Positions 19,774-36,490 of a stretch of DNA of 64,000 nt are shown in pieces; within the stretch, counting starts at the first letter, position 1; each line of letters begins with the position of its first letter. This DNA comes from Candidatus Woesearchaeota archaeon. GTDB lineage: Archaea; Nanobdellota; Nanobdellia; Pacearchaeales; GW2011-AR1. The DNA lies in contig CAZTVG010000001.1 in the NCBI GenBank assembly GCA_964617015.1, positions 46,584 to 110,583 on the forward strand, read 5' to 3'. Position numbers and translations under genes: made by a program. The notes beneath the pieces are model-generated. The model was not told the DNA's origin. It saw only the letters and a program-made list of their open reading frames with translations, and ran no database searches.

Positions 19774-22700
19774 CTATCTGCATTCAAGGAATAAAGAGTA
19801 TATCTCATCCTTAAAACCAATTACATCTTCAACATACCTAATATTTCCTTTACTGCAATCAGTATTCCATCCATTATATCCTCTCAAAGCTCTTGTCCAG
19901 CCACTATAAGTTTTTCCATTGCAAACATACTCCTTAGAAGAAGAAACATGATTATTAATTAATAAATTAATTCCAAAATTCACATTTTCATCAAAATTTA
20001 ATTTTTCTCCATGCACATTTTTATTTATCTGCATAATTCCCAGACTCGTTCCTTCATCTCCCGCAAGGATTTCTGCTTTGTTATTTTCACAATAAAGAGG
20101 GTTATTGTTTTCATATGGACCTTGACAGTGCCTTATTCTGCTTTCAGTGTATGCGACCTGCAATACAAGACATTCAAAAGAGCTTGCTCCTGTATCTGCT
20201 TTGACAGAGGCATCATCAATTCCTCTTTGCTGTTTTATTTCAACTGCAAGCTCAATTATTTTTTTCCCTAAAACCTGCTGGCACTCTGTGGATGTTGAAC
20301 AAGTAAGTTTAATTTCTTCTCTAGACTCTCCAGCCTCAATATATTCTCTAGGACCTTCAAATGTAGAATCTATATCAAAAATAATTTCAGCGCCATCGTA
20401 AAATTGCTTTCCTTCCAAATTTTTAATTAAATCAATAAATTCAGATTCAGGTTTGGTTTTTTCGAAATCTCTTACGCTTTCTGTTTCAGGAACAAGCACC
20501 CAACTTATTATATCAAAAGACCATGTCCATTTTTTTAAATTATCATCAAATTTGAAATACAACTCCTCACCCGTTATAATGTCTTCAGTCACAATAAACA
20601 ATTTCTTATCAGTAAATTTAATCCTTTCTGTATATAATTCAGCATCATCAAAAAAACCACCTTCATCATTGAATCTAGTTCTTTCAATTAACAATCTTAA
20701 ACCGTCAGAATAAGTTTTGTCTTTTAACTGAATCAAAAACTTCTTTTCTTTTTCAGGAGCATTTATATAAGCTTCATCCACATTTAACCACGAATCTAGA
20801 TTATTTTTATTACTAGATACATGCCATTCTGTTCCAGAATAAGTATAGTAGAAATCCTGCCCAAAAACCACTCCATCTTCAAACAAAAATATGGGATAAC
20901 TAAGAAAACCGCTGATTAATCCTGCTTTAATTGCTTCTTCTCCTGTTATGCTTCCTTCTTGAAGTTTCTCTGCCAATGTTTTTTCTCCTTCTTCAATTTT
21001 ATCAATTTCTGGTTTGAGTTTTTCAAATGCAATAATAGCAAGGTCTGCATAAACATCTCCTCTCAAAAGTGTCAAATAACCCTTCTGACTGCCAAAGAAA
21101 ACCCTATCAATATTATCACTAATCAAATTTATTTTATTGAAGTTATCATCTTCAGAATCAATTTCCTCCAAAAGACTCTCGAAGTCTTCAACAAAACCAC
21201 CTTCTTTTTGAAGTGTTTCAATGTAATTAGGTGCAACTTTTCCAAGCACTTCGTTTTCAAGATTTGTATTTCTTAGAGTACTTTTTACACTGTCTGTGTC
21301 AAGCCAGCACTGAATCTTTGTGTTTCCGCAATTTCCAACAGGTTGCCATCTTCCCTTTTCTGTATTCGCAAGTACATCTGTTCCCAAACCTGGATTGGCT
21401 GTTGCACATATTCTTGTGATTCCGCGATTGTAAATAGCAGGATTTGTGACTTCTGTTACTCCAGCCTGCAAGTTAGGAGAAAGTAAACTGTAAATACTTG
21501 GAGTCCCTGAAACACATGCTGTTTCAGAAGTTATATCTTTCTGAGCAGCCTGAGAAGCGACATATTGTTCTGTGATATAATTTACTCCAAAAGATGTTGT
21601 AACTTGCTTAAAGCCACACTCTTCCTGACCATTGACGATTATACACATCTCCCGATAACCAGAAGGAGCTGTAATATCTCTTGTTTCAGTGAAAAAGTCT
21701 CCTGCCTTGATAAACCCTTGAGCAATTATTCTTCTTACACCAGTATCCTGGTAGAAAGAACCTCCTGTTCCTCTAAGATAAACTTGGTAATACGCTGGGA
21801 AATCTTTTCCTGCATAGATGTGGTAAAATACCTTGTATTGTGAGACAGGTGGAACAGTGGCTGTGGTGAAGGGAATCTCGTCAAATCTTCCATAAAATTG
21901 TGCAGGAGAATCAGGGGTTGTAAGAGCGTCAAAGAAATTTCCTCCAGAAGGCCCTGCAATAGAAACAAAATTCTTGCAGACAGCTGTTCCTACATCTTCT
22001 ACAGACCTTGCCTTGAATGCCCGGAAAGAGTTTGCAGCATAATACTGTGTAAAGTATCCTGTGGATTGTGAGGCAGTATCCCATGCATTTGCAACTCCAA
22101 GATACTCTCCTCCTCCACGAACATTTTGTCCAAGCACTGTTCCAAGTCCTTTGGTAAGCGCTATTTTTGCCAGTGGAATAGACTGTCTCCAGAAGAAATC
22201 ACACATGTATATGCTATTAATTTCATCACAAATTCCAGTTGTTTGCCCTGTATCTAAACTTGCCTGCAAACACTGCTGATAAGAATCAAAAACAGTCAAC
22301 AAGCCATCTATGCCTGCGTGAACTCCTGAAAGGCAGATAGGAATTTTTACCTCTGGAAAGTTTGGTAGGCACAAGGCCAAACTGCCTGCTATTCCAGACT
22401 GTATAACATCTTTAACAGGATATGCTCCGCCTAAATCACATCTTGAACTTGGGCATACAACAGGATCACAAACATTAAACAATAAATTACAATCTGTGGG
22501 AGACATAAAATCCTGGCATTGTATGTCTGGAATACCTATTGCAGGTTCTCCCACTTGAATTGACCGGCCAAGTATTTGTACTTTCCTAACTCCATCATGA
22601 TATCCTCTTTCAGCATCTGAAATTGCCCTTACTGCCTTAATTGCCAATGAAGATGATTTGCTTTTATCTAATCCTGGAAACTGATTGTAAGGTTGATTTG

Positions 22701-25700
22701 TCCCTGGATTTATCATTTCACAAGTATCATCACCTATTCCAGAATCAAACTCTGCTCTTCCATTTCTTCCCACATTGCAAAGCCAGAAACTTCGAACTAC
22801 TCCTGAAGCATCATAAGCTCTTATTGCCCCACCTATTGGTGTAGTTGGTTTAACATAAGCATACCAACCTTCTTTAACATTAAATGGAACAATTGCGGGA
22901 AATCCTGCGTAAATGCCTACCTCATAATATCTTACTCTTGGATTTACAAATTGATTTTGATAAGTTGTTGAATCATATCTTCTTAAAGCAAGTCCTAGAG
23001 GATTTATGTTATCTTCTTCTACAGGAGTCAAACTACCATCATTATTTATCCTGTAAGTTTGAGTTATTATGAAATTATTATTTAAAGTTAAAAGATATTC
23101 TTTTCCATCAGATTCGTCAAAAAATTTCTGGACAAATTCTTTATCTTCTATAGAATCACTCTTATAATTATTCCTTGCCCTTACTTCCTCAAATGTTTTA
23201 ACTTCAGTAATTGCATATTCCTTTAGTTTTTTAGTAGAGCCTATTATAACTGGACCACCATATTCACCTTCAAGAGTTTGTCTTTTGACATCTCTCTGTG
23301 TATTAACATAAATATCTGCAAGTTCTTTTTTGACTTCTGCCCGGGCAATTGCCCTTATTCTTTCATTTTCAGAATTCACAAGTCTTGAATTCAGCTGAAG
23401 ATTTCTTGCCTGTGTTAAAAATGAAGTGTCTGAATTTATTCTGGCAATTGCATCTGAAACAAGAACATCCTGATTTCCTATTTTAATTTTATCATTTTCA
23501 AAAACCCCTTTCAAATTATCACTTAATTCCTTGTTGAAATCACTATCAACATATTCTTTCAATACTTTTTCTGTATCTTCTCCAGCTTTCCCTAATTTTT
23601 CACGAATAGTTTTGAATTCCTGGTTTTGTTTTTCCATTCCTCCAAAGATAATGTCAATATCTGCATCTATTGCATCTGAATTATCAAGAAGACATGAATC
23701 CACGCTTCCATATGTTGCCATGGACTCTTTTTTATTGCAGAATTCAAACCACCCAGAGTCACCCCTCATGACATTCTGCCTTGCAATCCCCTTTCCTCCA
23801 AGATTTGAAAAGAAATTCTTTATAGTCAACGTGGTTCCGACCCCAAGACATGCAGCCTTTAGACTACTGACAACTGTTCCGAGCTTCCCATTTATATCCT
23901 GCCATTTTTCTAAAGTTTTATTTAAAGATTCAATTCTTTCTCTTGTTTTTTCAGGGGATAACTGAATTCCTCTTTTTTCAATTCCTATCTTAAATCTAAA
24001 TGGAACACTTGTTCTTGCGTAATTTATTTTTGGATTTATTGAGACTTTTGCCAGTTTCTTTAGGTTAACTTCAAGAAGTGTAAATTTATATTTGCTTCCA
24101 AAACTTTCCGGGAAGTTTTTGTTTAATCTTTTAGTAGAAGTTCCCAGAATAAAAGCTTTTGTAGCTTCTGTTGTGCTTCTTTCTATCTGAAGATTAACTC
24201 TTACTGTAGCTGTTGCCTCCCTGTCTAAATCATCTCTGCGCAAATCCAAAAGCTGGATGAATTCGTCTTTGCTTAAATGATTAATGCTATTCTTCCTAAG
24301 AGTTATTTTATAAGGGCTTCCTTCCGGAGGACTGACTAATATTTCTGCCGAAAACTCGTCAAGAGATGGCTCTCTTATTCTGTCAAAAACAATTCTGTAG
24401 GTTCGTCCATCAATCAAAACGTCTCTGACTGCACTTTCAGTGCTTGAAAGCTTGTAAGCATTTCTACAAATATCAGTCACAACAGAATCAGGATAACTAT
24501 CCCTGAATTCATCACATAACTCAATAGCTGTTCTTTTTTGTCCTGTTAACCACGCAAGTTCTATTTTTGAAAATAAAGCCGCTTCACCAAGAGTTTCTGT
24601 TAGTTCCCCAAAAGATTCTTCCTGGGGAAAACTTGCAATAACAGTATCATAATCTCTTTCTGCTTTCCCATAAAAATTACTGACATCTGCTGACAAGGAT
24701 GAAATGTCTGAATCCTGTGCTTCTGCAAAACCAACAATAGCAAGAGTTTTTCCAAAAACCTTTTCTGACTCTCTGAAAGAAACAGATTCAAATGATTGTC
24801 CTGAAAGAAATCTGAGCCCTTTTTCTACACTTGAAAAAGCACCCTTAAACCCTTCCTTGATTAACTGATTCAAGTTGTCTATGTTTGAAGAAGGGAATCT
24901 GTTTACAAATCCACCAATAGAATTTAATACATTTTCTGTTAAAGCTTCTCCCTGGCCAGGCATGGAAACAGTAACAATAAATAAATTTTGTTCAGCTGTG
25001 CCAATGCCTTCTGTTCCAACATATGCGAGATAAACTGATTTCTCAGTTTCCTTACCTTTTTCAATCTCCTGGTAAAGTCTGTCCCCAACACTAACTTCAA
25101 TTGGTTTTCCTTCTATTTTCAGGTTTATTTTCGGATTGATTGTCATATCAAAAACACCCCTTCTCACATCTTCCCTGCAGCTAATCCTGACTCCCTCATT
25201 TACACCGTTTTTAATTATTCTTGTTACCTGACACTTGTTTTCAAGGAATCTTTCTCCTTCCTTGACCTCGACAACATCTTCATTTATTCTTAATTTTGCC
25301 CTTGTGTTTGGATTTTCCAAACCATTTAGCCTAACCTGCATTGACCCAAGACAATAATTAAAGCCAGGCATGAAAATTTCCCTTGATGTTTCGCCTACAT
25401 TAAGATTCACAGTCTGAAGTTTTCTTTTTACACCTGAAGTCCCAGAGCCATAGGTCTCTCTGTCAGAATAAATTGAAATTGATGCACCTAGATTATCAAT
25501 TGAATCTGCTCTCAGATACCCCTTACCTCTCCAAAAGCCATACTGACGGAAATTTTCCTCCCACTGCTCATCACTTAATTCAGGAAGGTAAAAATTAGCT
25601 CTTCCCACACCAAAAGCATTTTTTACATCATACCTTATTGTTGCTGTTAAATTTCCCAGAATAAATTCAGGCATTGCAGATTCATTTGCCTGCCTTCTCA

Positions 25701-26184
25701 GGACTATGACCGCATAACCTATGTTATTCAAAACAGGCTGGTTAAGCTGGGCACCATATCTCCCCAAGGCAGCTCTTGCAGGCACATAAGTCACTCCAAC
25801 AACTTCTTTAGGTTTTGGTCCTGCAAAAGAAAAAATAATATTATTAATGGCTTCAATTTTTATCAAAGGATTTAATTGTGTTGCAACTATTGGACAAAAA
25901 ACAGGAACGTTCTGATCTTCAAGGAGGTCGCTTCTTACAACAGATGGCTCACAACCCAAAGGGTTAACCTGAAGAATAAAATCCTGTCCTGCTTCACACA
26001 TGCTTCTGTCAAATAAAGGAAACTGCAAATCTCCCTGGAAAGGAACAAAAGTCGGGTAATAAGCAACATTGGAACGTGAGTAAGTATTGCTAGCACCACT
26101 GAAAATTTGCGATGAAATTAAAGATAATGCAAATACAATTCCAATTAATAATAAAATTCCGATTACTATTTGTTTTTTCTTCAT
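19774..26184 (-). CDS. giant secreted protein (2136 aa) with N-terminal signal/TM, central Cys-rich region and C-terminal lytic transglycosylase (SLT/lysozyme-like) domain
   Basis: N-terminus MKKKQIVIGILLLIGIVFALSLI. C-terminal 130 aa carry SLT family motifs AYTES (catalytic Glu-Ser), GIMQIN (GLMQ motif) and ALRGYNGW (AYNxG motif). Confidence 0.7.
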   Translation of the reverse strand: MKKKQIVIGILLLIGIVFALSLISSQIFSGASNTYSRSNVAYYPTFVPFQGDLQFPLFDRSMCEAGQDFILQVNPLGCEPSVVRSDLLEDQNVPVFCPIVATQLNPLIKIEAINNIIFSFAGPKPKEVVGVTYVPARAALGRYGAQLNQPVLNNIGYAVIVLRRQANESAMPEFILGNLTATIRYDVKNAFGVGRANFYLPELSDEQWEENFRQYGFWRGKGYLRADSIDNLGASISIYSDRETYGSGTSGVKRKLQTVNLNVGETSREIFMPGFNYCLGSMQVRLNGLENPNTRAKLRINEDVVEVKEGERFLENKCQVTRIIKNGVNEGVRISCREDVRRGVFDMTINPKINLKIEGKPIEVSVGDRLYQEIEKGKETEKSVYLAYVGTEGIGTAEQNLFIVTVSMPGQGEALTENVLNSIGGFVNRFPSSNIDNLNQLIKEGFKGAFSSVEKGLRFLSGQSFESVSFRESEKVFGKTLAIVGFAEAQDSDISSLSADVSNFYGKAERDYDTVIASFPQEESFGELTETLGEAALFSKIELAWLTGQKRTAIELCDEFRDSYPDSVVTDICRNAYKLSSTESAVRDVLIDGRTYRIVFDRIREPSLDEFSAEILVSPPEGSPYKITLRKNSINHLSKDEFIQLLDLRRDDLDREATATVRVNLQIERSTTEATKAFILGTSTKRLNKNFPESFGSKYKFTLLEVNLKKLAKVSINPKINYARTSVPFRFKIGIEKRGIQLSPEKTRERIESLNKTLEKWQDINGKLGTVVSSLKAACLGVGTTLTIKNFFSNLGGKGIARQNVMRGDSGWFEFCNKKESMATYGSVDSCLLDNSDAIDADIDIIFGGMEKQNQEFKTIREKLGKAGEDTEKVLKEYVDSDFNKELSDNLKGVFENDKIKIGNQDVLVSDAIARINSDTSFLTQARNLQLNSRLVNSENERIRAIARAEVKKELADIYVNTQRDVKRQTLEGEYGGPVIIGSTKKLKEYAITEVKTFEEVRARNNYKSDSIEDKEFVQKFFDESDGKEYLLTLNNNFIITQTYRINNDGSLTPVEEDNINPLGLALRRYDSTTYQNQFVNPRVRYYEVGIYAGFPAIVPFNVKEGWYAYVKPTTPIGGAIRAYDASGVVRSFWLCNVGRNGRAEFDSGIGDDTCEMINPGTNQPYNQFPGLDKSKSSSLAIKAVRAISDAERGYHDGVRKVQILGRSIQVGEPAIGIPDIQCQDFMSPTDCNLLFNVCDPVVCPSSRCDLGGAYPVKDVIQSGIAGSLALCLPNFPEVKIPICLSGVHAGIDGLLTVFDSYQQCLQASLDTGQTTGICDEINSIYMCDFFWRQSIPLAKIALTKGLGTVLGQNVRGGGEYLGVANAWDTASQSTGYFTQYYAANSFRAFKARSVEDVGTAVCKNFVSIAGPSGGNFFDALTTPDSPAQFYGRFDEIPFTTATVPPVSQYKVFYHIYAGKDFPAYYQVYLRGTGGSFYQDTGVRRIIAQGFIKAGDFFTETRDITAPSGYREMCIIVNGQEECGFKQVTTSFGVNYITEQYVASQAAQKDITSETACVSGTPSIYSLLSPNLQAGVTEVTNPAIYNRGITRICATANPGLGTDVLANTEKGRWQPVGNCGNTKIQCWLDTDSVKSTLRNTNLENEVLGKVAPNYIETLQKEGGFVEDFESLLEEIDSEDDNFNKINLISDNIDRVFFGSQKGYLTLLRGDVYADLAIIAFEKLKPEIDKIEEGEKTLAEKLQEGSITGEEAIKAGLISGFLSYPIFLFEDGVVFGQDFYYTYSGTEWHVSSNKNNLDSWLNVDEAYINAPEKEKKFLIQLKDKTYSDGLRLLIERTRFNDEGGFFDDAELYTERIKFTDKKLFIVTEDIITGEELYFKFDDNLKKWTWSFDIISWVLVPETESVRDFEKTKPESEFIDLIKNLEGKQFYDGAEIIFDIDSTFEGPREYIEAGESREEIKLTCSTSTECQQVLGKKIIELAVEIKQQRGIDDASVKADTGASSFECLVLQVAYTESRIRHCQGPYENNNPLYCENNKAEILAGDEGTSLGIMQINKNVHGEKLNFDENVNFGINLLINNHVSSSKEYVCNGKTYSGWTRALRGYNGWNTDCSKGNIRYVEDVIGFKDEIYSLFLECR

Positions 26185-26461: not shown

Positions 26462-28285
26462 TCATCTAAAATTTATATCAAGTCCTTTAGTTTCAAACAA
26501 TAAGTAGTTGGTTTCAAGTTTTTCAAGAGTGTCTGGTTTAGAAAGACTTTCTGCATTTATTTCAATAGTGCCGGAGTTTATCAATTCAGACTCTAAAATG
26601 AAATAATTTTGTTTTCCGCCTCCTGCTAAAGCATTTGAAATTAACTGCTCTGGGACTTCAATATCAAAACACCTCTCCTTTGTCACGCCAAACACCCCAA
26701 GGATTCCTGATTTTGGAACTTTTACGCACTGCTCTGTTGTTGTCGCTCCTATATTTATTGAGGAACTCCTGTAAATATAAACCTGAATCTCATACTGATC
26801 TTCGCCCAATTCAACTGTTCTTTGTTCAGGATAAGCAATTGTTTTTGTTGAATCCGATGAAATAAAATGAATTATTGAATTTCCGCTGTAACTTGCTCCA
26901 TCAAGTTTCAAATCAATATTTTTCGTGTAAAGCTTGTCAAGAATAATATCTATGTTTCCAGAAGAAACAGTAGAAAATAAATATCTTGCATCTTTAAATC
27001 CGTCGGCTCTCGCATGGACATAACCATTCACACATTGCGGAAAATTTTCTCTGAGTGCTCCAAAACTTGTCTCTCCTATATTGCATTTATTTCCTAAACA
27101 TTCATAAGAAATTTCTGCATCAACAGATCTTCCTTGTCTGTCTCTTGTGTTCACCTGAATTTCTGCATTTTTATATAAGCAAAGCTCTGGAACAACATTT
27201 TCAATCGCAGTTGCATTCAAAGACTCACGTGGATTATTATTTTGTAAAACAACAGCCATCGGAAACTGGAAAATCTCATCTCCATCAGAAACCTGTACTA
27301 AAACAGGATATTTTATACTGTAAACAAAATGATAAGGAACATAACAAAATCCAATAATTCCCAAACCAGGCTGGTTTCCCACAGGATTTGAAATCAAAAT
27401 GATTCCTTCAGAAGGCGAAACTTCAAAACTATTCGGCCAGTTTCGAGAATTCAGGAACCTTACTTCTTCTTCCACAGGCAAATCAACCTTAAAGTAATCA
27501 TCACTATCTACTCCTGTTTCAATTGCCAGTGTATTTGCCTCAATAGCTTCCTGAAGCTCATCAAAAACCTTATTGGCATTCCAGACTAAAGGACTGCATG
27601 TAAGTTCAACGCCGTCAACAGGAGCATATGATCTCAGTGTATCAACAGCATATTCTTCAAGAAACAGAGTTTCCTGTTCATGTTCATAAACTTTTACTGC
27701 AGAATCATATAAATTTCCTAGCTTTGATTTGACCACAATCTTATGATTTTTTACAGTGGCAGATTCATTGCCAAAAACTATATTCAAATTCATACTCAAA
27801 TCAATCTCAACCTCATCATCTTTAATATTAGAGCTTGCCTCGGGTTCTGCCAGAGAAATTTCAAATCCCTGTTCATAATAATCATTAAAATTGCAGTCAT
27901 TAATCCTTTCTTCAATGAACTCTTCAAGCTGAGTTTCCATCTCCTTTTTAGTGGGAACCTGTTCTTTTTGGATGTTGTTTCCAGAAACATAATACCAGTA
28001 AGGAATAGGATTTCCCAAAAAATTCAGTTGAGAGGAAAAAGGCATATATTGGGAACCTGGTTCAAATTCCGGCAGAAAAATATAACCTCCCTGGGATTCC
28101 AGAATGCCTGCCCCCACAGATGTATCTTCTTCAAGACAAGCCAAGAAAGCTGTATAAACAGGTTCAATATTTGCAGGTAAATCAATACTTATTAAAGAAC
28201 CTCTTAAAATAAAATAAGAAAGAACTCCTGCGAGAATAAGTATGGCAATTATAATAAATATGGTCACCTGCCCTTTATTTTTCAT
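26462..28285 (-). CDS. 607-aa exported protein with type IV pilin-like (class III) signal peptide
   Basis: N-terminus MKNKGQVTIFIIIAILILAGVLSYF (K-G-Q then hydrophobic helix, as in archaeal prepilins). Large Cys-containing extracellular domain. Confidence 0.55.
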   Translation of the reverse strand: MKNKGQVTIFIIIAILILAGVLSYFILRGSLISIDLPANIEPVYTAFLACLEEDTSVGAGILESQGGYIFLPEFEPGSQYMPFSSQLNFLGNPIPYWYYVSGNNIQKEQVPTKKEMETQLEEFIEERINDCNFNDYYEQGFEISLAEPEASSNIKDDEVEIDLSMNLNIVFGNESATVKNHKIVVKSKLGNLYDSAVKVYEHEQETLFLEEYAVDTLRSYAPVDGVELTCSPLVWNANKVFDELQEAIEANTLAIETGVDSDDYFKVDLPVEEEVRFLNSRNWPNSFEVSPSEGIILISNPVGNQPGLGIIGFCYVPYHFVYSIKYPVLVQVSDGDEIFQFPMAVVLQNNNPRESLNATAIENVVPELCLYKNAEIQVNTRDRQGRSVDAEISYECLGNKCNIGETSFGALRENFPQCVNGYVHARADGFKDARYLFSTVSSGNIDIILDKLYTKNIDLKLDGASYSGNSIIHFISSDSTKTIAYPEQRTVELGEDQYEIQVYIYRSSSINIGATTTEQCVKVPKSGILGVFGVTKERCFDIEVPEQLISNALAGGGKQNYFILESELINSGTIEINAESLSKPDTLEKLETNYLLFETKGLDINFR

Positions 28286-28531: not shown

Positions 28532-28726
28532 TTAATATCTGTATCTTCCTGCCCTGAAGTAATTAATTCCTCCAAAAAGAATCAAGATTCCCCCGATAAA
28601 AATTATCCAGGGGTCTAAGCTGGACATTACTTCTGGGAGAGTAAAAATACTAAAAGGATAATTTAGAAAATACAATCCAAAAATTAGATACAGCAACAAA
28701 ACGATTAACCTAAATCTACCCCTCAT
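28532..28726 (-). CDS. small 2-TM membrane protein
   Basis: 64 aa, two hydrophobic helices. Confidence 0.3.
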   Translation of the reverse strand: MRGRFRLIVLLLYLIFGLYFLNYPFSIFTLPEVMSSLDPWIIFIGGILILFGGINYFRAGRYRY

Positions 28727-28857: not shown

Positions 28858-29898
28858 ATGCGCGAAGATAGACGAATTAAATTGAAAAAATGGCAACAAA
28901 GAGGATTAATTTTAAACGCTGCAAAAAAAACTAGTTCCATTAAGCAACTTAGTATTAAAATCAAAGTTCCTTATTCAACCTTAAAAAAATATGCTCAAGA
29001 AGTTTTCTTACTGCCAGAAAATGTATTCAAAAAACTTATAGGTTTATCCTCTATTAAAGAAGAAGAATTAGAAATTACTTACCTATCAAACAATTGGGGA
29101 AAGATAATTGGAGGAAAAAAAGGTATGGAAACTATTCAAAAAAAATATCCTGAAAAAATTTTAGAATGGAGAAAAAAAGCAATTAGAAAATCTCATTTAA
29201 ATAATGCAAAGAAAATTAAAATACCCCCTCTTAATGAAAAATTGGCTGAATTAGTTGGAGTTTATTTAGGAGATGGGACACTAACAAAATATTTTATTAG
29301 AATATCTGGAGATTGTAGATATGACATTCCCTACTTCAAGTACTTATCAGAAGTCATATATGAGCTCTTTAGCATAAACCCCTCAATTAGAAAGGAAAAA
29401 AATAGAAATACATTGTACTTAACAATACTCTCTAAAAATGTTTGTTCTTTTTTAAATAAAAATTTTGGTTTAAGATATGGTCATAAAATAAAGAATAAAA
29501 CATGCATACCAAAAAAAATTTTAGAAGATGAAAAATTATCAATTGCTTGTTTTAGAGGACTCATTGATACAGATGGTTCCATATCCAGAAGAGGTAGAAG
29601 GGGGGGCCAGTTTTGTATTCAGTTTACATCCCATAACAAAGAACTACTAAAACAAGTTCATGAGATAGGAAAAAAAATAGAAGTATTTACTTTCGGAGAT
29701 AAAACAGGATCTGGAACGAACAAACAAGAAAATATACTCAAATTCTTTAAAATTGTGGGAAGTTCTAACTTAAGGCATATTGTAAGATTCCATCAAAGAT
29801 TTTACAAGAATAAAACACTTTATCAAAGAGATGTATTAAAGCATTATGAAAAACCTTTTTATATTAATCTAACCCTTCCATTTAAGGTGGCCTTGTAA
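28858..29898 (+). CDS. free-standing LAGLIDADG-family endonuclease-like protein with N-terminal HTH
   Basis: 346 aa. Two LAGLIDADG motifs, LAELVGVYLGDGTL and FRGLIDTDGSI. Very AT-rich gene. Stop codon overlaps the 5' end of a tRNA-Val-like element. Confidence 0.6.
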   Translation: MREDRRIKLKKWQQRGLILNAAKKTSSIKQLSIKIKVPYSTLKKYAQEVFLLPENVFKKLIGLSSIKEEELEITYLSNNWGKIIGGKKGMETIQKKYPEKILEWRKKAIRKSHLNNAKKIKIPPLNEKLAELVGVYLGDGTLTKYFIRISGDCRYDIPYFKYLSEVIYELFSINPSIRKEKNRNTLYLTILSKNVCSFLNKNFGLRYGHKIKNKTCIPKKILEDEKLSIACFRGLIDTDGSISRRGRRGGQFCIQFTSHNKELLKQVHEIGKKIEVFTFGDKTGSGTNKQENILKFFKIVGSSNLRHIVRFHQRFYKNKTLYQRDVLKHYEKPFYINLTLPFKVAL

Positions 29899-29961
29899 GC
29901 TAGTGGTAAACTGTATCCTTGACGTGGATGAATCCCCAGTTCGATTCTGGGCGGGGCCATT
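29889..29961 (+). tRNA. tRNA-Val (GAC)-like; 3' two-thirds canonical, 5'/D-arm non-canonical
   Basis: Anticodon arm TATCC-TTGACGT-GGATG, T-arm CCCAG-TTCGATT-CTGGG, acceptor 3' CGGGGCC-A. The 5' strand GGCCTTG pairs with two GU, and the D-arm cannot be folded canonically. Confidence 0.45.
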
Positions 29962-30022: not shown

Positions 30023-30976
30023 TTGTTAGGCATGGCATGTATTACAGGAAGAGGAATAAAATCAATTAATAATTCTGTTTTTGAAGCATCTTCTTTCCTA
30101 AAACTTTACAATGAAATGAACAATAAATTTTTTGGTATCATAAACAAGGAGATTAATATTGCAAAAAGAAAAACTCCGAATAGATTAGAAAATCTAATAA
30201 AAATTAAAAAATCGTTGGGAAAAACAAGCAAAGAAGAAATTTTCAAGATTCAAAAGAAAATTAATTGGATTACAGAGATAATAAAATCAGAAATGGACGT
30301 TCCAATACAGTTTTTCCTGTCCGGTTCAATTATAAAAGGTACTTATGTTCATGGTTTAAGTGATATTGATATTTTGATTTTCTTGAATAAAAAAGATTTG
30401 TCTAATGCAAAACCAAAAATAATTCAAAATAGGATATTAAATATTCTAAAAAAGTATTTTTCTAAACAAAATATGAAAAAAGATAAAGAAGCGGTTAATG
30501 TTTTTATTAATAAAAACCATGTTAAAGTACAAATAGTTCCAGCAGTATTTAAGAACGAAAAAATATTTTTTCCCACAATAGGTGGAGAAAGATGGAAAAG
30601 AATAAATCCAGATATATTCTCTAATTTATTGAAAGAACAAGATAAGAAACTCAAAAGGAAACTTACCCTTTCTATAAGGATAGCTAAAATTATTATGTCA
30701 AATTTTTCAAAGAATTATTGTTTAACTAGCCATCACCTAGAAGTTTTATCTTATTTATCCTCTAAAAACTCAAAAAATAAAAGTATTCTGGATTTACTTT
30801 CAAATATTTTTTCATATTCTTCAAACAGAATTATGGGACCTGTAAAAGATAGTTCAAGGCAAGTTAAATCTATTGATGAATATTTGGGTCCTAAAGGAAA
30901 TCTAAAAAGAAAAAGAATATCTAATAAATTAAAAGAAATTTCAGAAAAGATAAACAAAGAGGAAATAAATATATGA
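30023..30976 (+). CDS. Pol-beta superfamily nucleotidyltransferase (cGAS/DncV-like or archaeal CCA-like fold) with Gln at third catalytic position
   Basis: 317 aa. GS..G..hSDhDh signature FFLSGSIIKGTYVHGLSDIDILIF. A beta-strand HVKVQIVPAVF about 60 aa later corresponds to the hDhhPA strand, but Q replaces the acidic residue. Confidence 0.5.
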   Translation: MLGMACITGRGIKSINNSVFEASSFLKLYNEMNNKFFGIINKEINIAKRKTPNRLENLIKIKKSLGKTSKEEIFKIQKKINWITEIIKSEMDVPIQFFLSGSIIKGTYVHGLSDIDILIFLNKKDLSNAKPKIIQNRILNILKKYFSKQNMKKDKEAVNVFINKNHVKVQIVPAVFKNEKIFFPTIGGERWKRINPDIFSNLLKEQDKKLKRKLTLSIRIAKIIMSNFSKNYCLTSHHLEVLSYLSSKNSKNKSILDLLSNIFSYSSNRIMGPVKDSSRQVKSIDEYLGPKGNLKRKRISNKLKEISEKINKEEINI

Positions 30977-32328
30977 AAAAAGAGATAAATCCTTGGTTGC
31001 CTTGGAAAGATACAATCAGACTTCCTGCTTCTACAGACAAAGGAAACATATTAGTAATTATCCCAACTGCCGGAAATGATATAGAAATGCTTAGAAAATG
31101 TTTAGATTCGCTTAAATTTGCTGCGAGTGGAAAAGGCATCCATGTTGTAATTGTTTTATCACCAACAGCGTTAAAAAAGAAAGAAAAGCTAGAAAAGTTA
31201 TTTGGGAAAGATGCCGAAATAATTTCACTAAGAGGGTCTTTCAATTATTGTCGTAGCATTAATACTGGATTGTCTTTTAGAAATAAAAAAGACAGATATG
31301 CTTTATTTTTGAATGATGATGTAACTTTTACAAAAAAAGGAGACTTGCATGAACTCAAAAAAACTTTAAGAAAACAAAGATGGGCATGTGTGGGTCCTTT
31401 CATAAATTACAATCCAAACCGCTATGATCCTACATGGCCTAAAGAAAAATCTAGTTTAGGTGTAGTACCAAGGACATCTGGAGCAATTAGAACCAACCTA
31501 CCTCTAAGTGGGTCTTGTTCATTATGGGACCTAGAATGGTTAGATAAGATTGGTAAACTTGACGAGGAATTTGGAAGGGGTTGGGGAATGGATGAAGCTG
31601 ATTTATGTATCCGAGTATTAAGACTTGGAGCAAGATATGGGCGTCAAGATACAGTAACAATTAATCATATTATGCACGCTACACTTGGAGAGAAATTTAC
31701 AAGATATACTGGACCTGTTCACATGCGAAGCTTAAACTATTTCAAAAAGAAATATGGAAAAGAAATTGAAGAATGGGGTAAAAGCTATCATTGGTTTCCC
31801 CTCCCGGGAATACAGGTCATAATGTTTCCATGCAAAAATCAAAGAAAATTTAGAGATTGCTTGAATAAAATTGAGCGGGATTTAGAGGGTTTTCGATGGA
31901 TTTTGTTAGTAGGAGACAATACTAATAAAGAAATAATATACAACACAGCCAAAAAACATTGCCAAAAAAACTCCAGCGCAGATAAATGCATAATAAGAAA
32001 ATTTGATAACAAAAAGTTATATAGTAAAGATATTTTTAAGAAGATAGTAATTATTAAATCTCCTATAGGAGAACAATATCCTGTAATATATCTAGTTGAT
32101 GCAAATAAAAAAATACCTGGAAGCTATGTAAAGGAGTTACTTTGGCAAATTAGAGATAAAGGGATTTTAGCAGGAAAAATTGGAAAAGAGAAAACTATTT
32201 CTGAAGAGATCTTTCCAAATATAAAATTTGTGAAATTTAAAACTAAACATAAAAAATATAATCATGTGAGTGGTTCAATATTTCACATTAAAACCATAAT
32301 AAAAAATTCAAATGAAAAGATACATTAA
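30973..32328 (+). CDS. glycosyltransferase family 2 (GT-A) with C-terminal extra domain
   Basis: 451 aa. ILVIIPTAGN...FLNDDVTF (DxD). Start overlaps the NTase stop (ATGA). Confidence 0.65.
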   Translation: MKKEINPWLPWKDTIRLPASTDKGNILVIIPTAGNDIEMLRKCLDSLKFAASGKGIHVVIVLSPTALKKKEKLEKLFGKDAEIISLRGSFNYCRSINTGLSFRNKKDRYALFLNDDVTFTKKGDLHELKKTLRKQRWACVGPFINYNPNRYDPTWPKEKSSLGVVPRTSGAIRTNLPLSGSCSLWDLEWLDKIGKLDEEFGRGWGMDEADLCIRVLRLGARYGRQDTVTINHIMHATLGEKFTRYTGPVHMRSLNYFKKKYGKEIEEWGKSYHWFPLPGIQVIMFPCKNQRKFRDCLNKIERDLEGFRWILLVGDNTNKEIIYNTAKKHCQKNSSADKCIIRKFDNKKLYSKDIFKKIVIIKSPIGEQYPVIYLVDANKKIPGSYVKELLWQIRDKGILAGKIGKEKTISEEIFPNIKFVKFKTKHKKYNHVSGSIFHIKTIIKNSNEKIH

Positions 32329-33136
32329 ATCAAACAAATCATTGTGGGATGAATTAACATCAATACATAAAGAGGAGAATAATCTTTATTCAATTCGGGA
32401 TTTTAAATCTGGAAAAACAACATTATCAAAAACAGAGGTTAAAGAGTTAGGAGATATTTCTGGAAAAACAATATTACATTTGCAATGCCATTTTGGATTA
32501 GACACATTATCCTTGACTAGAATGGGAGCAAAAGTTACAGGGATTGATTTTTCAAAGAAATCAATTGAATTGGCAAGATCTTTGAGTGAAGAATTAGGAA
32601 TTAATGCAAAATTTATATGCGCAGATGTATATGGCTTGCCCAAAATTTTAAAAGAAAAGTTTGATGTAGTCTTTACTTCTTATGGAGTTTTGTTATGGTT
32701 ACCAGATTTAAAAAAGTGGGCAAAAATAATTTCACATTTTTTGAAACCTAAAGGGGCTTTTTATATTATTGAAGGTCATCCTTTTAGTATGGTTTTAAAA
32801 AATGTTGGGAAGGAGATTAATTTATCAGTCAAGAAATCCTATTTTCATTCTTCAAGACCCCTAGAAGGAAAAAAAGAGAAAGATTATACAAACAAAAGAA
32901 AACAATTAAAAAATATCGCTTACACATGGACTCATAGTATTAGTGATGTAATTAATTCATTAATCTCGGCAGGTTTAAGAATTGATTATTTGCATGAATT
33001 TCCTTACTCCCGTGAAGTTAATTATCCGAATATGGAATTAAAAAAAGATGGTTGGTGGTTTAAAGGCAAAAAGAAAATTATCCCCTTAATGTTCTCAATT
33101 CATGCAACAAAAGAGGTTGAGAAAAGTAAAAAATGA
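32312..33136 (+). CDS. class I SAM-dependent methyltransferase
   Basis: 274 aa. Motif I region KTILHLQCHFGLDTLSLTRMGAKVTGIDFS. Confidence 0.6.
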   Translation: MKRYIKSNKSLWDELTSIHKEENNLYSIRDFKSGKTTLSKTEVKELGDISGKTILHLQCHFGLDTLSLTRMGAKVTGIDFSKKSIELARSLSEELGINAKFICADVYGLPKILKEKFDVVFTSYGVLLWLPDLKKWAKIISHFLKPKGAFYIIEGHPFSMVLKNVGKEINLSVKKSYFHSSRPLEGKKEKDYTNKRKQLKNIAYTWTHSISDVINSLISAGLRIDYLHEFPYSREVNYPNMELKKDGWWFKGKKKIIPLMFSIHATKEVEKSKK

Positions 33137-33684
33137 AAAAAGTAACAATAATAATTCAGGCAATACCTTTTTGTTTTGGTCCCGGAGCACAAACATTGGC
33201 AATAGGGAACCAATTGCGATCAATTCTTGGTAAAAAATTGAATCTTATTGCATTGGGGACAGGTACAACCTATGAATTTCTCAAAAAATCAAAAACCTTT
33301 GATAAGATATATGAATATTCCTCAGAAGAAAAAACTATTCCCAATAAAATAAAATCTCTTTTATTGTCATCAGATAAGATAGTTTGTATAGGAGATTTTG
33401 AATTCATAAATAAAGTTAATACACTTGGAAAGGGAGTTGAATTTGTTGACCCTTTATTTTGGATGTGGAATAAATTTCCATCAAACATAAATTATTGCAA
33501 CAAATACTATGCCGTTGATTTTCCAGGAGTAAAAAAACGCGTAAAAGAATATATAAAAAGATTTCCTAAAAGTTTAAAACCAACTATTGTAAATCAAATA
33601 TGTGAATATTCTAAAAGAAAAAAGAGAAAGCATTATGATACAATCATTGTACAATTTGGCGGATACAAAATCCTAGGGGGATAA
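33133..33684 (+). CDS. GT-B glycosyltransferase N-terminal (Alg14/MurG-N-like) half
   Basis: 183 aa. MKKVTIIIQAIPFCFGPGAQTLAIGNQL glycine-rich loop. Confidence 0.45.
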   Translation: MKKVTIIIQAIPFCFGPGAQTLAIGNQLRSILGKKLNLIALGTGTTYEFLKKSKTFDKIYEYSSEEKTIPNKIKSLLLSSDKIVCIGDFEFINKVNTLGKGVEFVDPLFWMWNKFPSNINYCNKYYAVDFPGVKKRVKEYIKRFPKSLKPTIVNQICEYSKRKKRKHYDTIIVQFGGYKILGG

Positions 33685-33782
33685 ACATAGATTTAATTAT
33701 TGCGACGGTTGAAGAAATATCGAATAGTATAAAGAACATTCCAGAATTAAAGAAAGTATTTGTTCGTGGAGGATCTAAAGTT

Positions 33783-34328
33783 ATGAAAATTGTTCGAAAA
33801 AAGGCAAGAGATCTAGATCCCAGAATAGAAATTGGAACATCCTACCATAAAGATTTTCTTAAAGAACTATCTTCATGTAAAGCGTTATTAACAGTTCCCG
33901 GAATGTCTATTGTTTATGAAGCTTTTGCGGGTAAAATTCCATTAATGTTTATCTTACCTTTAAATTATACCCAACATAGACAATTGATTGCCTATAAAAA
34001 AATCTTCAAAAATTTTGAATATGTTTCATGGGAAAATTTCGAGGGATATAGAACTCTTCCAGAAAAAATTCCAGAAGAAATGGCTATTAGTGAAGCGATA
34101 AACATGGGAAAATGTTTTTTTAGTGATGCTAAAACACGAATTAAATTTAGAAAAGAAATAATTAATTTCTTAACCAAGCAAAAATATGAAGTCTTAACGG
34201 TGAAAAAGCATAATAATAGAAATCAAAAGATTAAGATAGATGGAGCAAAAGAGATTGCAGAAGATTTGGTTAAAGAAATTTTGCGTGCTAAGACTTATAA
34301 AAAACATATCAAAAAGGTTATAAAGTGA
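33783..34328 (+). CDS. GT-B glycosyltransferase C-terminal (Alg13/MurG-C-like) half
   Basis: 181 aa. ALLTVPGMSIVYEAFAGKIPLMFILPLNYTQHRQL matches the glyco_tran_28_C pattern. Confidence 0.5.
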   Translation: MKIVRKKARDLDPRIEIGTSYHKDFLKELSSCKALLTVPGMSIVYEAFAGKIPLMFILPLNYTQHRQLIAYKKIFKNFEYVSWENFEGYRTLPEKIPEEMAISEAINMGKCFFSDAKTRIKFRKEIINFLTKQKYEVLTVKKHNNRNQKIKIDGAKEIAEDLVKEILRAKTYKKHIKKVIK

Positions 34329-35341: not shown

Positions 35342-35947
35342 TTATTTCACGAAAGAGTTTATTATAGGAACCTTTAGATTGTAATCAAGATTATTTTTCA
35401 ATAAAAGATAATCACTTCTGATCATGTTCTTTCTGTTTTCTTCTAAATCATAATATTTAATATCTTCCCTCGTGGAAACCGAAACAAGCATCAAAAGAAA
35501 ACTGTATATTATTTTTCCCTTCTTCCTTATTTGTTCCAGAGATATACTCTTGATGCCCTTAAATGAAGAATTGATTCCAAACTTATCCTTCATGATTCTC
35601 ATTGTAGCCTTTTTTATATTTTCTCCGACAAAAATTCTTCCTCCAGGCAGAGACAAAAAATTATTGTAGGGTCTTTTCTTACGGTGATGCAAAAAATATT
35701 TTCCTTTTTTCTCTGCAACAATTAACAAAACCGGCAAAATCGCCTGTTTTTCCGTGATATATGGGATAAGGTGTTCATAGTTTTCAGAGAGCATGTAATT
35801 TTCTCCGTTCTTAACAACAATTCCTTTAGAAATTAATTTCTTCAGATGATAAGCCAGCTTATTTGATCTTGATTCTGTCTTATCTTCAATCTCACTGAAT
35901 CTAAGTTTGTTCTTGTAAAGAAAAACATTCAATATATCTTTTTCCAT
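35342..35947 (-). CDS. wHTH transcription regulator fused to degenerate Nudix domain (NrtR-like)
   Basis: 201 aa. N-terminal wHTH LRFSEIEDKTESRSNKLAYHLKKLISKGIV. Nudix-like box SLPGGRIFVGENIKKATMRIMKDKFGI with degenerate REx2EE. Confidence 0.5.
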   Translation of the reverse strand: MEKDILNVFLYKNKLRFSEIEDKTESRSNKLAYHLKKLISKGIVVKNGENYMLSENYEHLIPYITEKQAILPVLLIVAEKKGKYFLHHRKKRPYNNFLSLPGGRIFVGENIKKATMRIMKDKFGINSSFKGIKSISLEQIRKKGKIIYSFLLMLVSVSTREDIKYYDLEENRKNMIRSDYLLLKNNLDYNLKVPIINSFVK

Positions 35948-36001
35948 TTTAGTCAGATTTTTTGAGGAAACGTTTAAATAAAAAAACTATTGTCCTGCAA
36001 T

Positions 36002-36490
36002 ATGTATGATAAAAATCAGGCACATTATGTTGTTGTCACAGGAGTTTTAGTCAAAGATGGAAAATTCCTGATAACGAAAAGGGCTGAATGGGAAAAAGCT
36101 TTTCCTGGAAAATGGACTGTCCCGGGTGGAAAATTGGAAGTTCTTGATTATGTATTGCGAGAAAAAGACACTTCCCACCACTGGTATAATGTATTCGAAG
36201 ATTTGTTGAGGAGAGAGATAAAAGAAGAGGTCGGATTAGAAATTAAAAATATTGGATATATAACAAGCATGGTTTATATCAGGTCGGATAAAATCCCCAC
36301 CATCATTGTAAGTTTATTTGCAGAACCAACAACAGAAAACATAATGCTATGTCCTGCACTAACAGAGTATGCTTGGATTACATTAGAAGAGGCAAAAAAT
36401 TATGATTTGATAGAAGGAATTTGTGAAGAGTTAGAAATACTAGACAGACACCTTAAAGGACAAAAATTAGAAGAATGGGAAAAAGCTTAA
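36002..36490 (+). CDS. Nudix hydrolase
   Basis: Nudix box VPGGKLEVLDYVLREKDTSHHWYNVFEDLLRREIKEEVGL. Start taken at the Met of MYDKNQ. Confidence 0.7.
   Translation: MYDKNQAHYVVVTGVLVKDGKFLITKRAEWEKAFPGKWTVPGGKLEVLDYVLREKDTSHHWYNVFEDLLRREIKEEVGLEIKNIGYITSMVYIRSDKIPTIIVSLFAEPTTENIMLCPALTEYAWITLEEAKNYDLIEGICEELEILDRHLKGQKLEEWEKA

Follow-up and report, generated by a model that had tools for sequence, protein, structure and literature searches.

Prokaryotic cGAS/DncV-like nucleotidyltransferases (CD-NTases) generally neighbor an effector that kills or arrests the cell, and in cyclic oligonucleotide-based antiphage signaling systems (CBASS) the responder is encoded beside the cyclase. For the CD-NTase gene described here, which lies in a 64-kb stretch of archaeal DNA (contig CAZTVG010000001.1, positions 46,584 to 110,583; hereafter, the window), the closest described system is the Rhizobiales type IV CBASS. 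In a structural preprint on that system (bioRxiv 10.1101/2025.04.06.647259), its CD-NTase is represented by the structures 9ntn and 9nto, the QueC-like Cap9 conjugates 7-amido-7-deazaguanine onto the N-terminal Gly2 of the cyclase, and the TGT-like Cap10 binds the modified tail. The same text describes the tail motif M(G/S)G(G/S)GG as universal in type IV operons and essential for defense, and reports that the D94A/D96A substitution in the Rhizobiales cyclase (CdnD) abolishes phage defense. Our analysis places the window gene in the lineage that normally forms type IV CBASS, and finds it at the head of a conserved operon of glycosyltransferase and methyltransferase genes.

Family identity of the CD-NTase

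The open reading frame (ORF) at 30023-30976 on the forward strand was confirmed in the window. TTG at 30023 is only its earliest possible start; ATG at 30032, backed by the gene callers of four public sources and by the N termini of orthologs, gives a protein of 314 amino acids (aa). Residues are numbered here in the 317-aa version counted from TTG. A preliminary description, made from the letters of the DNA alone, had proposed a Pol-beta-type nucleotidyltransferase of the CD-NTase or SMODS kind, 317 aa long. The family assignment was borne out by the searches given below, and the length holds for the ORF and not for the probable protein.

The segment FFLSGSIIKGTYVHGLSDIDILIF holds the G101-S102 motif and D114-x-D116, and the strand HVKVQIVPAVF comes 54 residues after it. 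The protein passed the Pfam SMODS model (PF18144; 37.8 bits vs a gathering cutoff of 26.5, E = 3e-9). NCBIfam NF041117 (CBASS oligonucleotide cyclase) matched it at 3e-45 with 154.9 bits, under the 200-bit equivalog cutoff; the scores of its orthologs from DPANN archaea range from 89 to 158 bits, and a canonical member of the family (P0004) reaches 254.8 bits. In addition, the PADLOC Cyclase model PDLC00790 matched at 7e-46 and a hidden Markov model (HMM) that we built for the cyclase family matched at 1.6e-53. The E values of NF041117, PADLOC, and our own HMM exclude chance as an explanation of the family match.

Structure comparisons gave the same placement. The top sequence match in the PDB is CdnD 9ntn/9nto (3.4e-21 for 9ntn), and in the AlphaFold2 (AF2) model of the window protein (mean pLDDT 67), an alpha/beta core leads into a C-terminal region of helices (residues 196-311), as the preliminary description had expected. 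A Foldseek comparison of this model with the PDB ranked 9ntn/9nto first (9ntn_G, 2.4e-12), followed by PaCdnD, CdnE, CdnC, CdnG, and DncV. All 32 top-ranked matches were CD-NTases, and human MiD51 was the only other protein among the top 50; TM scores did not exceed 0.62 (PaCdnD).

The window protein keeps the near-invariant family residues K105, K222, H238, E240, D276, Q280, and D285. The family-specific set (Gln170, K222, H238-x-E240, and D276..Q280..D285-E-Y-L-G) is complete, each element being at least 94% conserved across 155 sequences. Rhizobiales type IV CdnD (9ntn/9nto; NF041117; PDLC00790), the best match in both sequence and fold, is of similar size (both ~310 aa) and shares the G-S motif, D-x-D (window D114/D116 are equivalent to D94/D96), the Gln site, the HxE of the C-terminal lobe, and the C-terminal D..Q..(I/V)DEYLG. 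The two differ in that the window protein is only ~22-31% identical, scores below the equivalog cutoff, and lacks the M(G/S)G(G/S)GG start. Collectively, these data identify the gene as a CD-NTase-fold nucleotidyltransferase of the lineage that normally forms type IV CBASS.

The third catalytic position

HMMER aligned VKVQIVP of the window protein with LDVDIVP of Escherichia coli CdnC, placing the Gln on the catalytic Asp, and a profile alignment put the family consensus veiqllPav on VSVDAVPAF of Pseudomonas aeruginosa CdnD. Given these two alignments, Q170 occupies the site of the third catalytic Asp of two solved CD-NTases, as had been proposed from the sequence. The third acidic residue of the h-D-h-h-P strand is thus not found in the window protein, which has Gln170 instead, as does the type IV subfamily throughout.

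An exhaustive profile search yielded 288 cluster representatives at E ≤ 1e-30, the top 154 of which were aligned together with the window protein, and species genomes in GTDB supplied 79 genomic loci. Gln fills the third position in 154 of the 155 aligned sequences (Glu in one), at all 79 GTDB loci, and in 4 of the 5 DPANN orthologs, the fifth of which (locus L091) has Glu. Among ~240 family members in all, every one has Gln except two with Glu. Judged from these alignments, Gln is the near-invariant state of type IV CD-NTases, and neither a mark of inactivation nor a peculiarity of the window protein. Since the entire type IV subfamily has Gln, the missing third acid does not exclude membership of the superfamily. 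Since a single change would turn CAA into GAA, Gln is probably kept by selection, beyond mere tolerance. A one-off inactivating substitution was rejected because Gln is the family norm, and the Gln likewise gives no support to the inactivated enzyme that the preliminary description had offered as an option; the few exceptions to Gln are Glu.

The three-acid CD-NTases (DncV, CdnC, CdnE, PaCdnD, and cGAS/OAS) share with this family the fold, the G-S motif, D-x-D, the helical C-lobe, and the strand that carries the third position; they differ in having Asp where this family has Gln, and their products are known. We found no discussion of the family-wide Gln in the accessible text of the structural preprint (bioRxiv 10.1101/2025.04.06.647259). 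An active site of two carboxylates plus Gln across the type IV family means that its chemistry or product may differ from those of canonical CD-NTases. Since no product is known for any type IV CD-NTase, the product and metal dependence of the Q-type enzymes are a well-defined experimental question.

Absence of the type IV partner genes

Measured against the features that define type IV CBASS, the window gene falls short on five counts: it scores below the equivalog level, carries no Gly tail, and has neither Cap9 nor Cap10 nor an effector beside it. It begins with MACITGRGIKS, without a Gly-rich tail, and the Gly motif is missing in all five DPANN orthologs, whose starts also include MVKKVSF, MEKSPKK, and MTPNTKR. 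To survey partners, ORFs within 6 kb of the cyclase were clustered across the 79 loci. TGT-like Cap10 (PADLOC TGT, 2e-127) was found at 62 of them, QueC-like Cap9 (Pfam QueC, 2.6e-28) at 58, the 2TM effector (PADLOC 2TM) and OGG-like Cap11 (PADLOC OGG) at 43 each, and a Cap17-like protein (Pfam Cap17-like_N) at 21; the cyclases of these family loci sit with Cap or effector genes.

The HMMs for Cap9, Cap10, Cap11, 2TM, Cap17-like, and DprA-like proteins gave no match at E < 0.1 in the 64-kb window or in L008, a syntenic Nanoarchaeota locus, whichever frame was read. The Cap9 HMM, built from 58 family-linked proteins, gave none at E < 1 in any frame of either, and the best window match of the Cap10 HMM (64 proteins) had an E value of 1.3. 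PADLOC reported no effector among the neighbors of the window CD-NTase, and we found no further defense genes near the operon. In this lineage of Pacearchaeota-like Nanoarchaeota (DPANN), the enzyme has thus lost its Gly tail along with the usual effectors and Cap9, Cap10, and Cap11. A canonical type IV CBASS was rejected because the Gly tail is missing and the HMMs of every conserved partner are silent across 64 kb. The standard defense role suggested in the preliminary description did not hold up either, since the neighbor search found no effector, sensor, or Cap gene in the window.

The same losses occur elsewhere in the family. Full flanks (at least 2.5 kb to either side) are available for 61 loci. 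Cap9 and Cap10 are both missing from 14 of these, and so, in every one of the 14, is the Gly tail. Most of these 14 encode 279-aa Dehalococcoidia proteins with a Cap17-like or DprA/SLOG-like neighbor. Like the window enzyme, the Dehalococcoidia Q-type CD-NTases (L046, L053, L071, and others) keep the Gln and have lost the Gly tail and Cap9/Cap10; they differ in keeping a CBASS-type neighbor, either a Cap17-like ATP nucleosidase or a DprA/SLOG-like protein. Since they form a separate clade, the loss in DPANN is independent. The Dehalococcoidia enzymes show that the type IV cyclase family can work without deazaguanylation, and the loss of the tail together with Cap9/Cap10 in both groups supports the idea that the tail exists solely for that regulation. 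In the Dehalococcoidia clade (L046, L053, L055, L061, L071, L073, L076, L078, and L080), the type IV cyclase family in effect serves as the base of a type I-like CBASS.

Conservation of the operon in DPANN genomes

The host is archaeal, as the window encodes TFB, S8e, S3Ae, L44e, GINS, and SRP54/FtsY, and related contigs carry the labels Nanoarchaeota or Candidatus Pacearchaeota. The order CD-NTase, two-domain GT-A glycosyltransferase (GT2), methyltransferase, and a 379-386-aa GT-B-like protein (GT1), with overlapping or abutting junctions, is found in the window, L083, L084/L085, L087, and L091. The operon is thus borne by five independent low-GC contigs, at least two of which are DPANN metagenome-assembled genomes (MAGs). 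In the window, the CD-NTase stop overlaps the GT2 start by 4 nt, as ATGA (30973-30976). The translational coupling to GT2 noted in the preliminary description is conserved in relatives, and this conservation lends weight to the link with glycan chemistry proposed there.

The GT2 orthologs in L083, L084/L085, and L087 are 54-75% identical and always lie directly downstream of the CD-NTase. Against the others, L091 shows 31-32% identity for the CD-NTase and 39% for GT2, with the gene order unchanged, and the methyltransferase is 52-82% identical across all five operons. The GT2 homologs of high-GC bacteria are not accompanied by any of the operon partners. Word-indexed protein searches for relatives of the CD-NTase returned only three to six, its word patterns being of low complexity. 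A chance adjacency to GT2, which the lack of GT2 in L008 had suggested, was overturned, since every GT2 ortholog on a long contig has the CD-NTase upstream.

In the window, L008, L083, and L084, tRNA-Val(GAC) precedes and L44e/S3Ae follow the operon position. The operon is therefore conserved, with the CD-NTase as first cistron, between tRNA-Val and L44e/S3Ae, and we hold with high confidence that the gene is a type IV-lineage CD-NTase within a conserved operon. A 64-aa ORF occurs at the same position in L083 (tblastn, 72% identity) and L084 (51%); L008, whose operon is destroyed, lacks it. In L008, a MAG locus, all that is left of the cyclase is residues 1-125 (64% identity), and the break lies beside an insertion sequence (IS) 200-like ORF. 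GT2, the methyltransferase, and the first half of the fourth gene are gone from this locus, and the C-terminal half of that gene (75% identity) remains along with tRNA-Val, L44e, S3Ae, and tRNA-Thr.

Several of these loci show further rearrangements. At 10369-10819 of L008, the CD-NTase homolog stops past D-x-D and an IS200-like transposase ORF, identified by eye, lies on the opposite strand. The segment that replaces GT2, the methyltransferase, and the first half of GT1 there holds three ORFs, of 356 aa (hydrophobic N terminus), 414 aa (HPFxxGNxR, a Fic-like motif), and 286 aa (very hydrophobic). At 1688-1897 of L083, the first ~20 residues of the CD-NTase have given way to L44e residues 2-70 (80% identity), which are fused in frame at its upstream end. 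As the genuine L44e is still present downstream of the operon, this fused copy reflects either a duplication/recombination event or an assembly artifact. At 6188-7985 of L091, the most divergent copy of the operon, a radical S-adenosylmethionine (SAM) gene overlaps the cyclase start, with a secreted NAGPA-like phosphodiester glycosidase upstream; the best matches of the radical SAM gene are weak and include viperin-like, QueE, and MoaA proteins. A virus-borne operon was rejected on the result of an IMG/VR search, which found no relative of the CD-NTase on viral contigs and one distant GT2 match, on a contig of 68% GC without the partners.

Phylogeny and selection

The five operon cyclases form one clade (neighbor-joining bootstrap 100/100 and 60/60). 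Their sister, in 37 of 60 replicates, is a canonical type IV member from a Promethearchaeota (Asgard) MAG, with an MGGTGG start and both Cap9 and Cap10 present. Since the five cyclases are monophyletic with a canonical type IV sister, the tree indicates that the operon-linked cyclases stem from a single recruitment event.

The DPANN orthologs are 31-58% identical, and all keep the G-S motif, D-x-D, HHLE, and D..Q..IDEYLG. Pairwise omega values for the CD-NTase are 0.17-0.42 among the four closer orthologs and 0.37-0.68 for pairs with L091, and those for GT2 and the methyltransferase are 0.11-0.27; all of these values are rough, with dS near saturation, and they place the CD-NTase clade under purifying selection. 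Relative to its operon partners, the CD-NTase evolves at two to three times the rate.

At 24.6% GC, the CD-NTase gene is the lowest among the 60 window ORFs of at least 90 aa, in agreement with the preliminary description, which had called it the most AT-rich gene of the window, and its combined lysine, asparagine, and isoleucine (K+N+I) content is the highest. Every CD-NTase ortholog has 23-28% GC and 33-40% K+N+I. Since the composition recurs in every ortholog, low GC is a lineage trait; a recent horizontal acquisition, which low GC might suggest, was rejected on this ground and because the locus is syntenic. An alternative genetic code in L091, whose GT2 is interrupted, was also rejected, since the in-frame stop is TAA and the ORF content is the same under tables 4 and 25.

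Possible functions of the operon

We infer that the enzyme is probably catalytically competent, because Q-type cyclases elsewhere adjoin classical signal-activated CBASS effectors (2TM and Cap17-like, at the 43 and 21 of 79 loci given above) and because the D-x-D of a Q-type enzyme is required for defense according to the preprint (bioRxiv 10.1101/2025.04.06.647259). The presence of such effectors argues that Q-type enzymes make signals. In the operon described here, the CD-NTase would bind nucleoside triphosphates (NTPs) and turn them into a nucleotide-derived product; a small oligonucleotide, linear or cyclic, like those of other CD-NTases is the most probable. This product would act on the glycosyl- and methyl-transferase module, which is a candidate responder because in CBASS the responder gene adjoins the cyclase. 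Synthesis of a methylated glycan or glycoconjugate would thereby be switched on or tuned, and the output may serve defense against viruses (e.g., surface remodeling) or the normal physiology of host attachment.

Taken as a whole, a competent type IV-lineage CD-NTase that signals to a glycosyl- and methyl-transferase module is the explanation that we favor, and we consider it moderately probable. The signal-to-glycosyltransferase mechanism itself is put forward tentatively. That a CD-NTase lineage was taken from CBASS and domesticated in DPANN archaea, as a signal synthase or nucleotide donor for a surface-glycan or glycoconjugate pathway, is possible, and we regard it as somewhat more doubtful still. 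A second messenger is known to control a GT2 that makes a surface polymer in the c-di-GMP-regulated exopolysaccharide synthases (e.g., BcsA-PilZ). The analogy is functional only: the synthase fold is GGDEF there vs CD-NTase here, no PilZ or known sensor was detected in the window proteins, and regulation in the present case is hypothetical.

DPANN archaea are tiny symbionts, and their biology depends on cell-surface contact with a host. If such a domestication took place, it would have produced either a CBASS type that is new in using glycosyltransferases as effectors or a CD-NTase pathway that is the first to end in glycosylation instead of cell death. That a CD-NTase clade of single descent is kept by selection and wired to two glycosyltransferases and a methyltransferase speaks for a different output of cGAS-like signaling. 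Our literature searches returned no description of a CD-NTase-glycosyltransferase operon and no report of CD-NTases from DPANN archaea; one review gives type IV CBASS in a few euryarchaea only.

Several points weigh against a signaling function as proposed. No SAVED, STING, PilZ, CARF, or similar sensor domain was recognized in GT2, the methyltransferase, or GT1, and a module of three enzymes resembles a biosynthetic pathway more closely than it does a CBASS effector. Only five instances of the operon are known; the classification is solid, and the function is read from these five. Lesions recur, namely, the IS-associated deletion in L008, the GT1 frameshift in the window, and a nonsense codon in GT2 of L091 (TAA at an invariant Thr, 8505-8507). 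The operon is therefore dispensable, as the truncation in L008 implies for the CD-NTase itself; the module is maintained yet dispensable, and it may be decaying in this genome. To our knowledge, no Q-type CD-NTase has a demonstrated product. In the preprint, the purified Cap10-CdnD complex was inactive in vitro and yielded no nucleotide product (bioRxiv 10.1101/2025.04.06.647259).

Among the other explanations, one in which the four enzymes build a single molecule is unlikely in our judgment, and less so than the others. The nucleotidyltransferase product could be an acceptor that the GT-A, GT-B, and methyltransferase enzymes decorate into a glycosylated, methylated nucleotide- or nucleoside-like metabolite; alternatively, as the preliminary description had suggested, the enzyme could nucleotidylate a sugar, sugar-phosphate, glycan, or lipid intermediate. 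Four overlapping transferase genes do resemble a pathway. The only match of the GT-B-like protein is CGA synthase, a nucleobase-glycosylating glycosyltransferase (3e-7), the nearest solved relatives of the methyltransferase are small-molecule N-methyltransferases such as ToxA, and the weak best matches of the radical SAM gene that overlaps the CD-NTase start in L091 include nucleotide-transforming enzymes. All of these matches, however, are far under family cutoffs. A non-hydroxyl nucleophile would need metal A less, and so would fit the Gln, but the Gln is common to the defense family and not specific to the operon. The faster evolution of the CD-NTase relative to its partners is unusual for one step of a pathway, and we know of no CD-NTase-fold enzyme in small-molecule or glycan biosynthesis. 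That same rate difference would suit a new CBASS-like antiviral system, in which a Cap9/Cap10-independent cyclase senses infection and the effector is the glycosyltransferase/methyltransferase module, possibly joined by the small putative membrane protein, acting by depletion of nucleotide-sugar or lipid-carrier pools or by remodeling of virus receptors. Its ancestry in a defense family, the Dehalococcoidia precedent of Cap9/Cap10-less Q-type cyclases paired with effectors, the patchy retention with repeated lesions and loss that is typical of defense genes, and the plasticity of the region (with a LAGLIDADG insertion in the window and, in L008, an IS200-like gene) are consistent with such a system. 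It is nevertheless improbable, given that the operon occupies a fixed syntenic chromosomal site by ribosomal-protein genes in four genomes and not a variable defense island, that no PADLOC effector model matches GT2 or GT1, and that relatives on viral contigs and other defense genes nearby were not found in our searches.

The gene could also be a non-functional relic, either the decaying remnant of a type IV CBASS before an unrelated glycosylation operon or a non-catalytic scaffold. Every partner and the essential N-terminal tail have been lost, the GC content is the lowest and K+N+I the highest of the window, the NF041117 score is below the cutoff, and the operon of this genome is already frameshifted; moreover, the CD-NTase is truncated in L008 and its N terminus is replaced by an L44e fragment in L083. 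Decay of this kind is hard to reconcile with near-invariant catalytic and family residues that are all kept in orthologs 31-58% identical, with omega well below 1, with gene order and overlapping junctions kept across deep divergence, and with ORFs intact in five lineages, and we consider a relic quite improbable. A housekeeping tRNA CCA-adding or poly(A)-polymerase-like enzyme, for which the preliminary description had left room, is the least probable of all and was in effect rejected. The gene does adjoin tRNA-Val, and TIGR03671 does match at 3.6e-8; the match is confined to the nucleotidyltransferase core (residues 70-175) and scores 32.6 bits vs a cutoff of 281.3. No CCA enzyme is among the top fold matches, all 32 of which are CD-NTases, the C-terminal domain carries type IV family-specific motifs, and the gene is truncated in L008, hence dispensable.

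Features of the locus and neighboring genes

The features of the locus are collected in Table 1.

Table 1. Positions in the window of the CD-NTase, its catalytic residues, and the surrounding features
Feature	Position	Strand	Evidence or remark
CD-NTase (SMODS), type IV CBASS CdnD lineage	30023..30976	+	First cistron of the operon; probable start ATG 30032
G101-S102, Pol-beta G-S motif	30323..30328	+	Sequence; family column G 153/153, S 149/153 ungapped representatives
D114-I-D116, two metal-binding aspartates	30362..30370	+	D114 30362-30364, D116 30368-30370; invariant in 153/153 representatives and at 79/79 loci
Q170 (CAA), third catalytic carboxylate position	30530..30532	+	Within HVKVQIVPAVF; aligned to the catalytic Asp of EcCdnC/PaCdnD
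Two-domain GT-A (GT2) glycosyltransferase	30973..32328	+	Pfam Glycos_transf_2, 1.7e-7; start overlaps CD-NTase stop
Class I SAM-dependent methyltransferase	32312..33136	+	Pfam Methyltransf_25/31/11, 1e-13 to 1e-14; 17-nt overlap with GT2
GT-B-like fourth gene (GT1)	33133..34328	+	Split into ORFs 33133-33684 and 33783-34328; relatives intact, 379-386 aa
tRNA-Val(GAC)	29888..29960	+	ARAGORN and Rfam; directly upstream of the operon
64-aa ORF, two hydrophobic stretches (putative two-transmembrane)	28532..28726	-	Divergent; operon membership uncertain

GT2 is a 451-aa protein with a GT-A domain that carries an NDDV (DXD-type) motif and a second Rossmann-like domain at residues 278-446. Its AF2 model is of low confidence (pLDDT 61), and the best folds, at low TM scores, are the dual GT-A polymerases K4CP and PmHS2, which suggests that the second domain may resemble a second GT-A half. 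No Pfam domain and no known nucleotide-sensor fold was recognized in the C terminus of GT2. The best PDB relatives of the methyltransferase are ToxA-like small-molecule methyltransferases (5jdz, 8.6e-12), and PDB sequence searches with GT2 and GT1 gave no matches.

The fourth gene is split in the window by a single 1-nt frameshift near 33665-33672, at the interdomain linker, as read from the DNA in comparison with L087. The split is shared by the assemblies L001 and L002, that is, by three assemblies in all. The only family match of this gene, the TIGR04467 CGA synthase model, is far under the cutoff (the intact L087 protein gives 3e-7, and the window halves give 5e-3 and 6e-5). The two halves may work separately, or the gene may have been inactivated recently.

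Upstream of the operon, the 64-aa ORF matches no PADLOC effector model and not the HMM of the type IV 2TM effector. Rfam finds two tRNAs only at the locus, and a riboswitch or structured leader was rejected on that result. An element integrated at tRNA-Val was rejected as well, since the repeats there are A-rich and of low complexity and none is an att-like tRNA fragment. A free-standing LAGLIDADG homing endonuclease-like ORF (28858-29898, +; Pfam LAGLIDADG_3, 2.4e-10; PADLOC HEase) overlaps tRNA-Val by 11 nt at its 3' end. A tblastn search of the syntenic loci (L008, L083, and L084) found no homolog of it, so that it is apparently a lineage-specific insertion.

Between S3Ae and tRNA-Thr lie a fusion of a winged helix-turn-helix domain with a NUDIX domain (35342-35947, -) and a NUDIX hydrolase (35990-36490, +); the latter matches the PADLOC candidate PDC-S07 at 1.7e-13. 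Neither NUDIX gene has tblastn homologs in L008, L083, or L084, and the interval holds NDK in L083 and L084 (with a weak MazG match in L083). Directly upstream of the locus are two ORFs on the reverse strand, of 2136 aa (19774-26184) and 607 aa (26462-28285), both with hydrophobic N termini. The 607-aa ORF has no Pfam match, and both are 41-70% identical to their counterparts in the syntenic loci. Both may be surface proteins, and both are candidate substrates for the glycosylation module.

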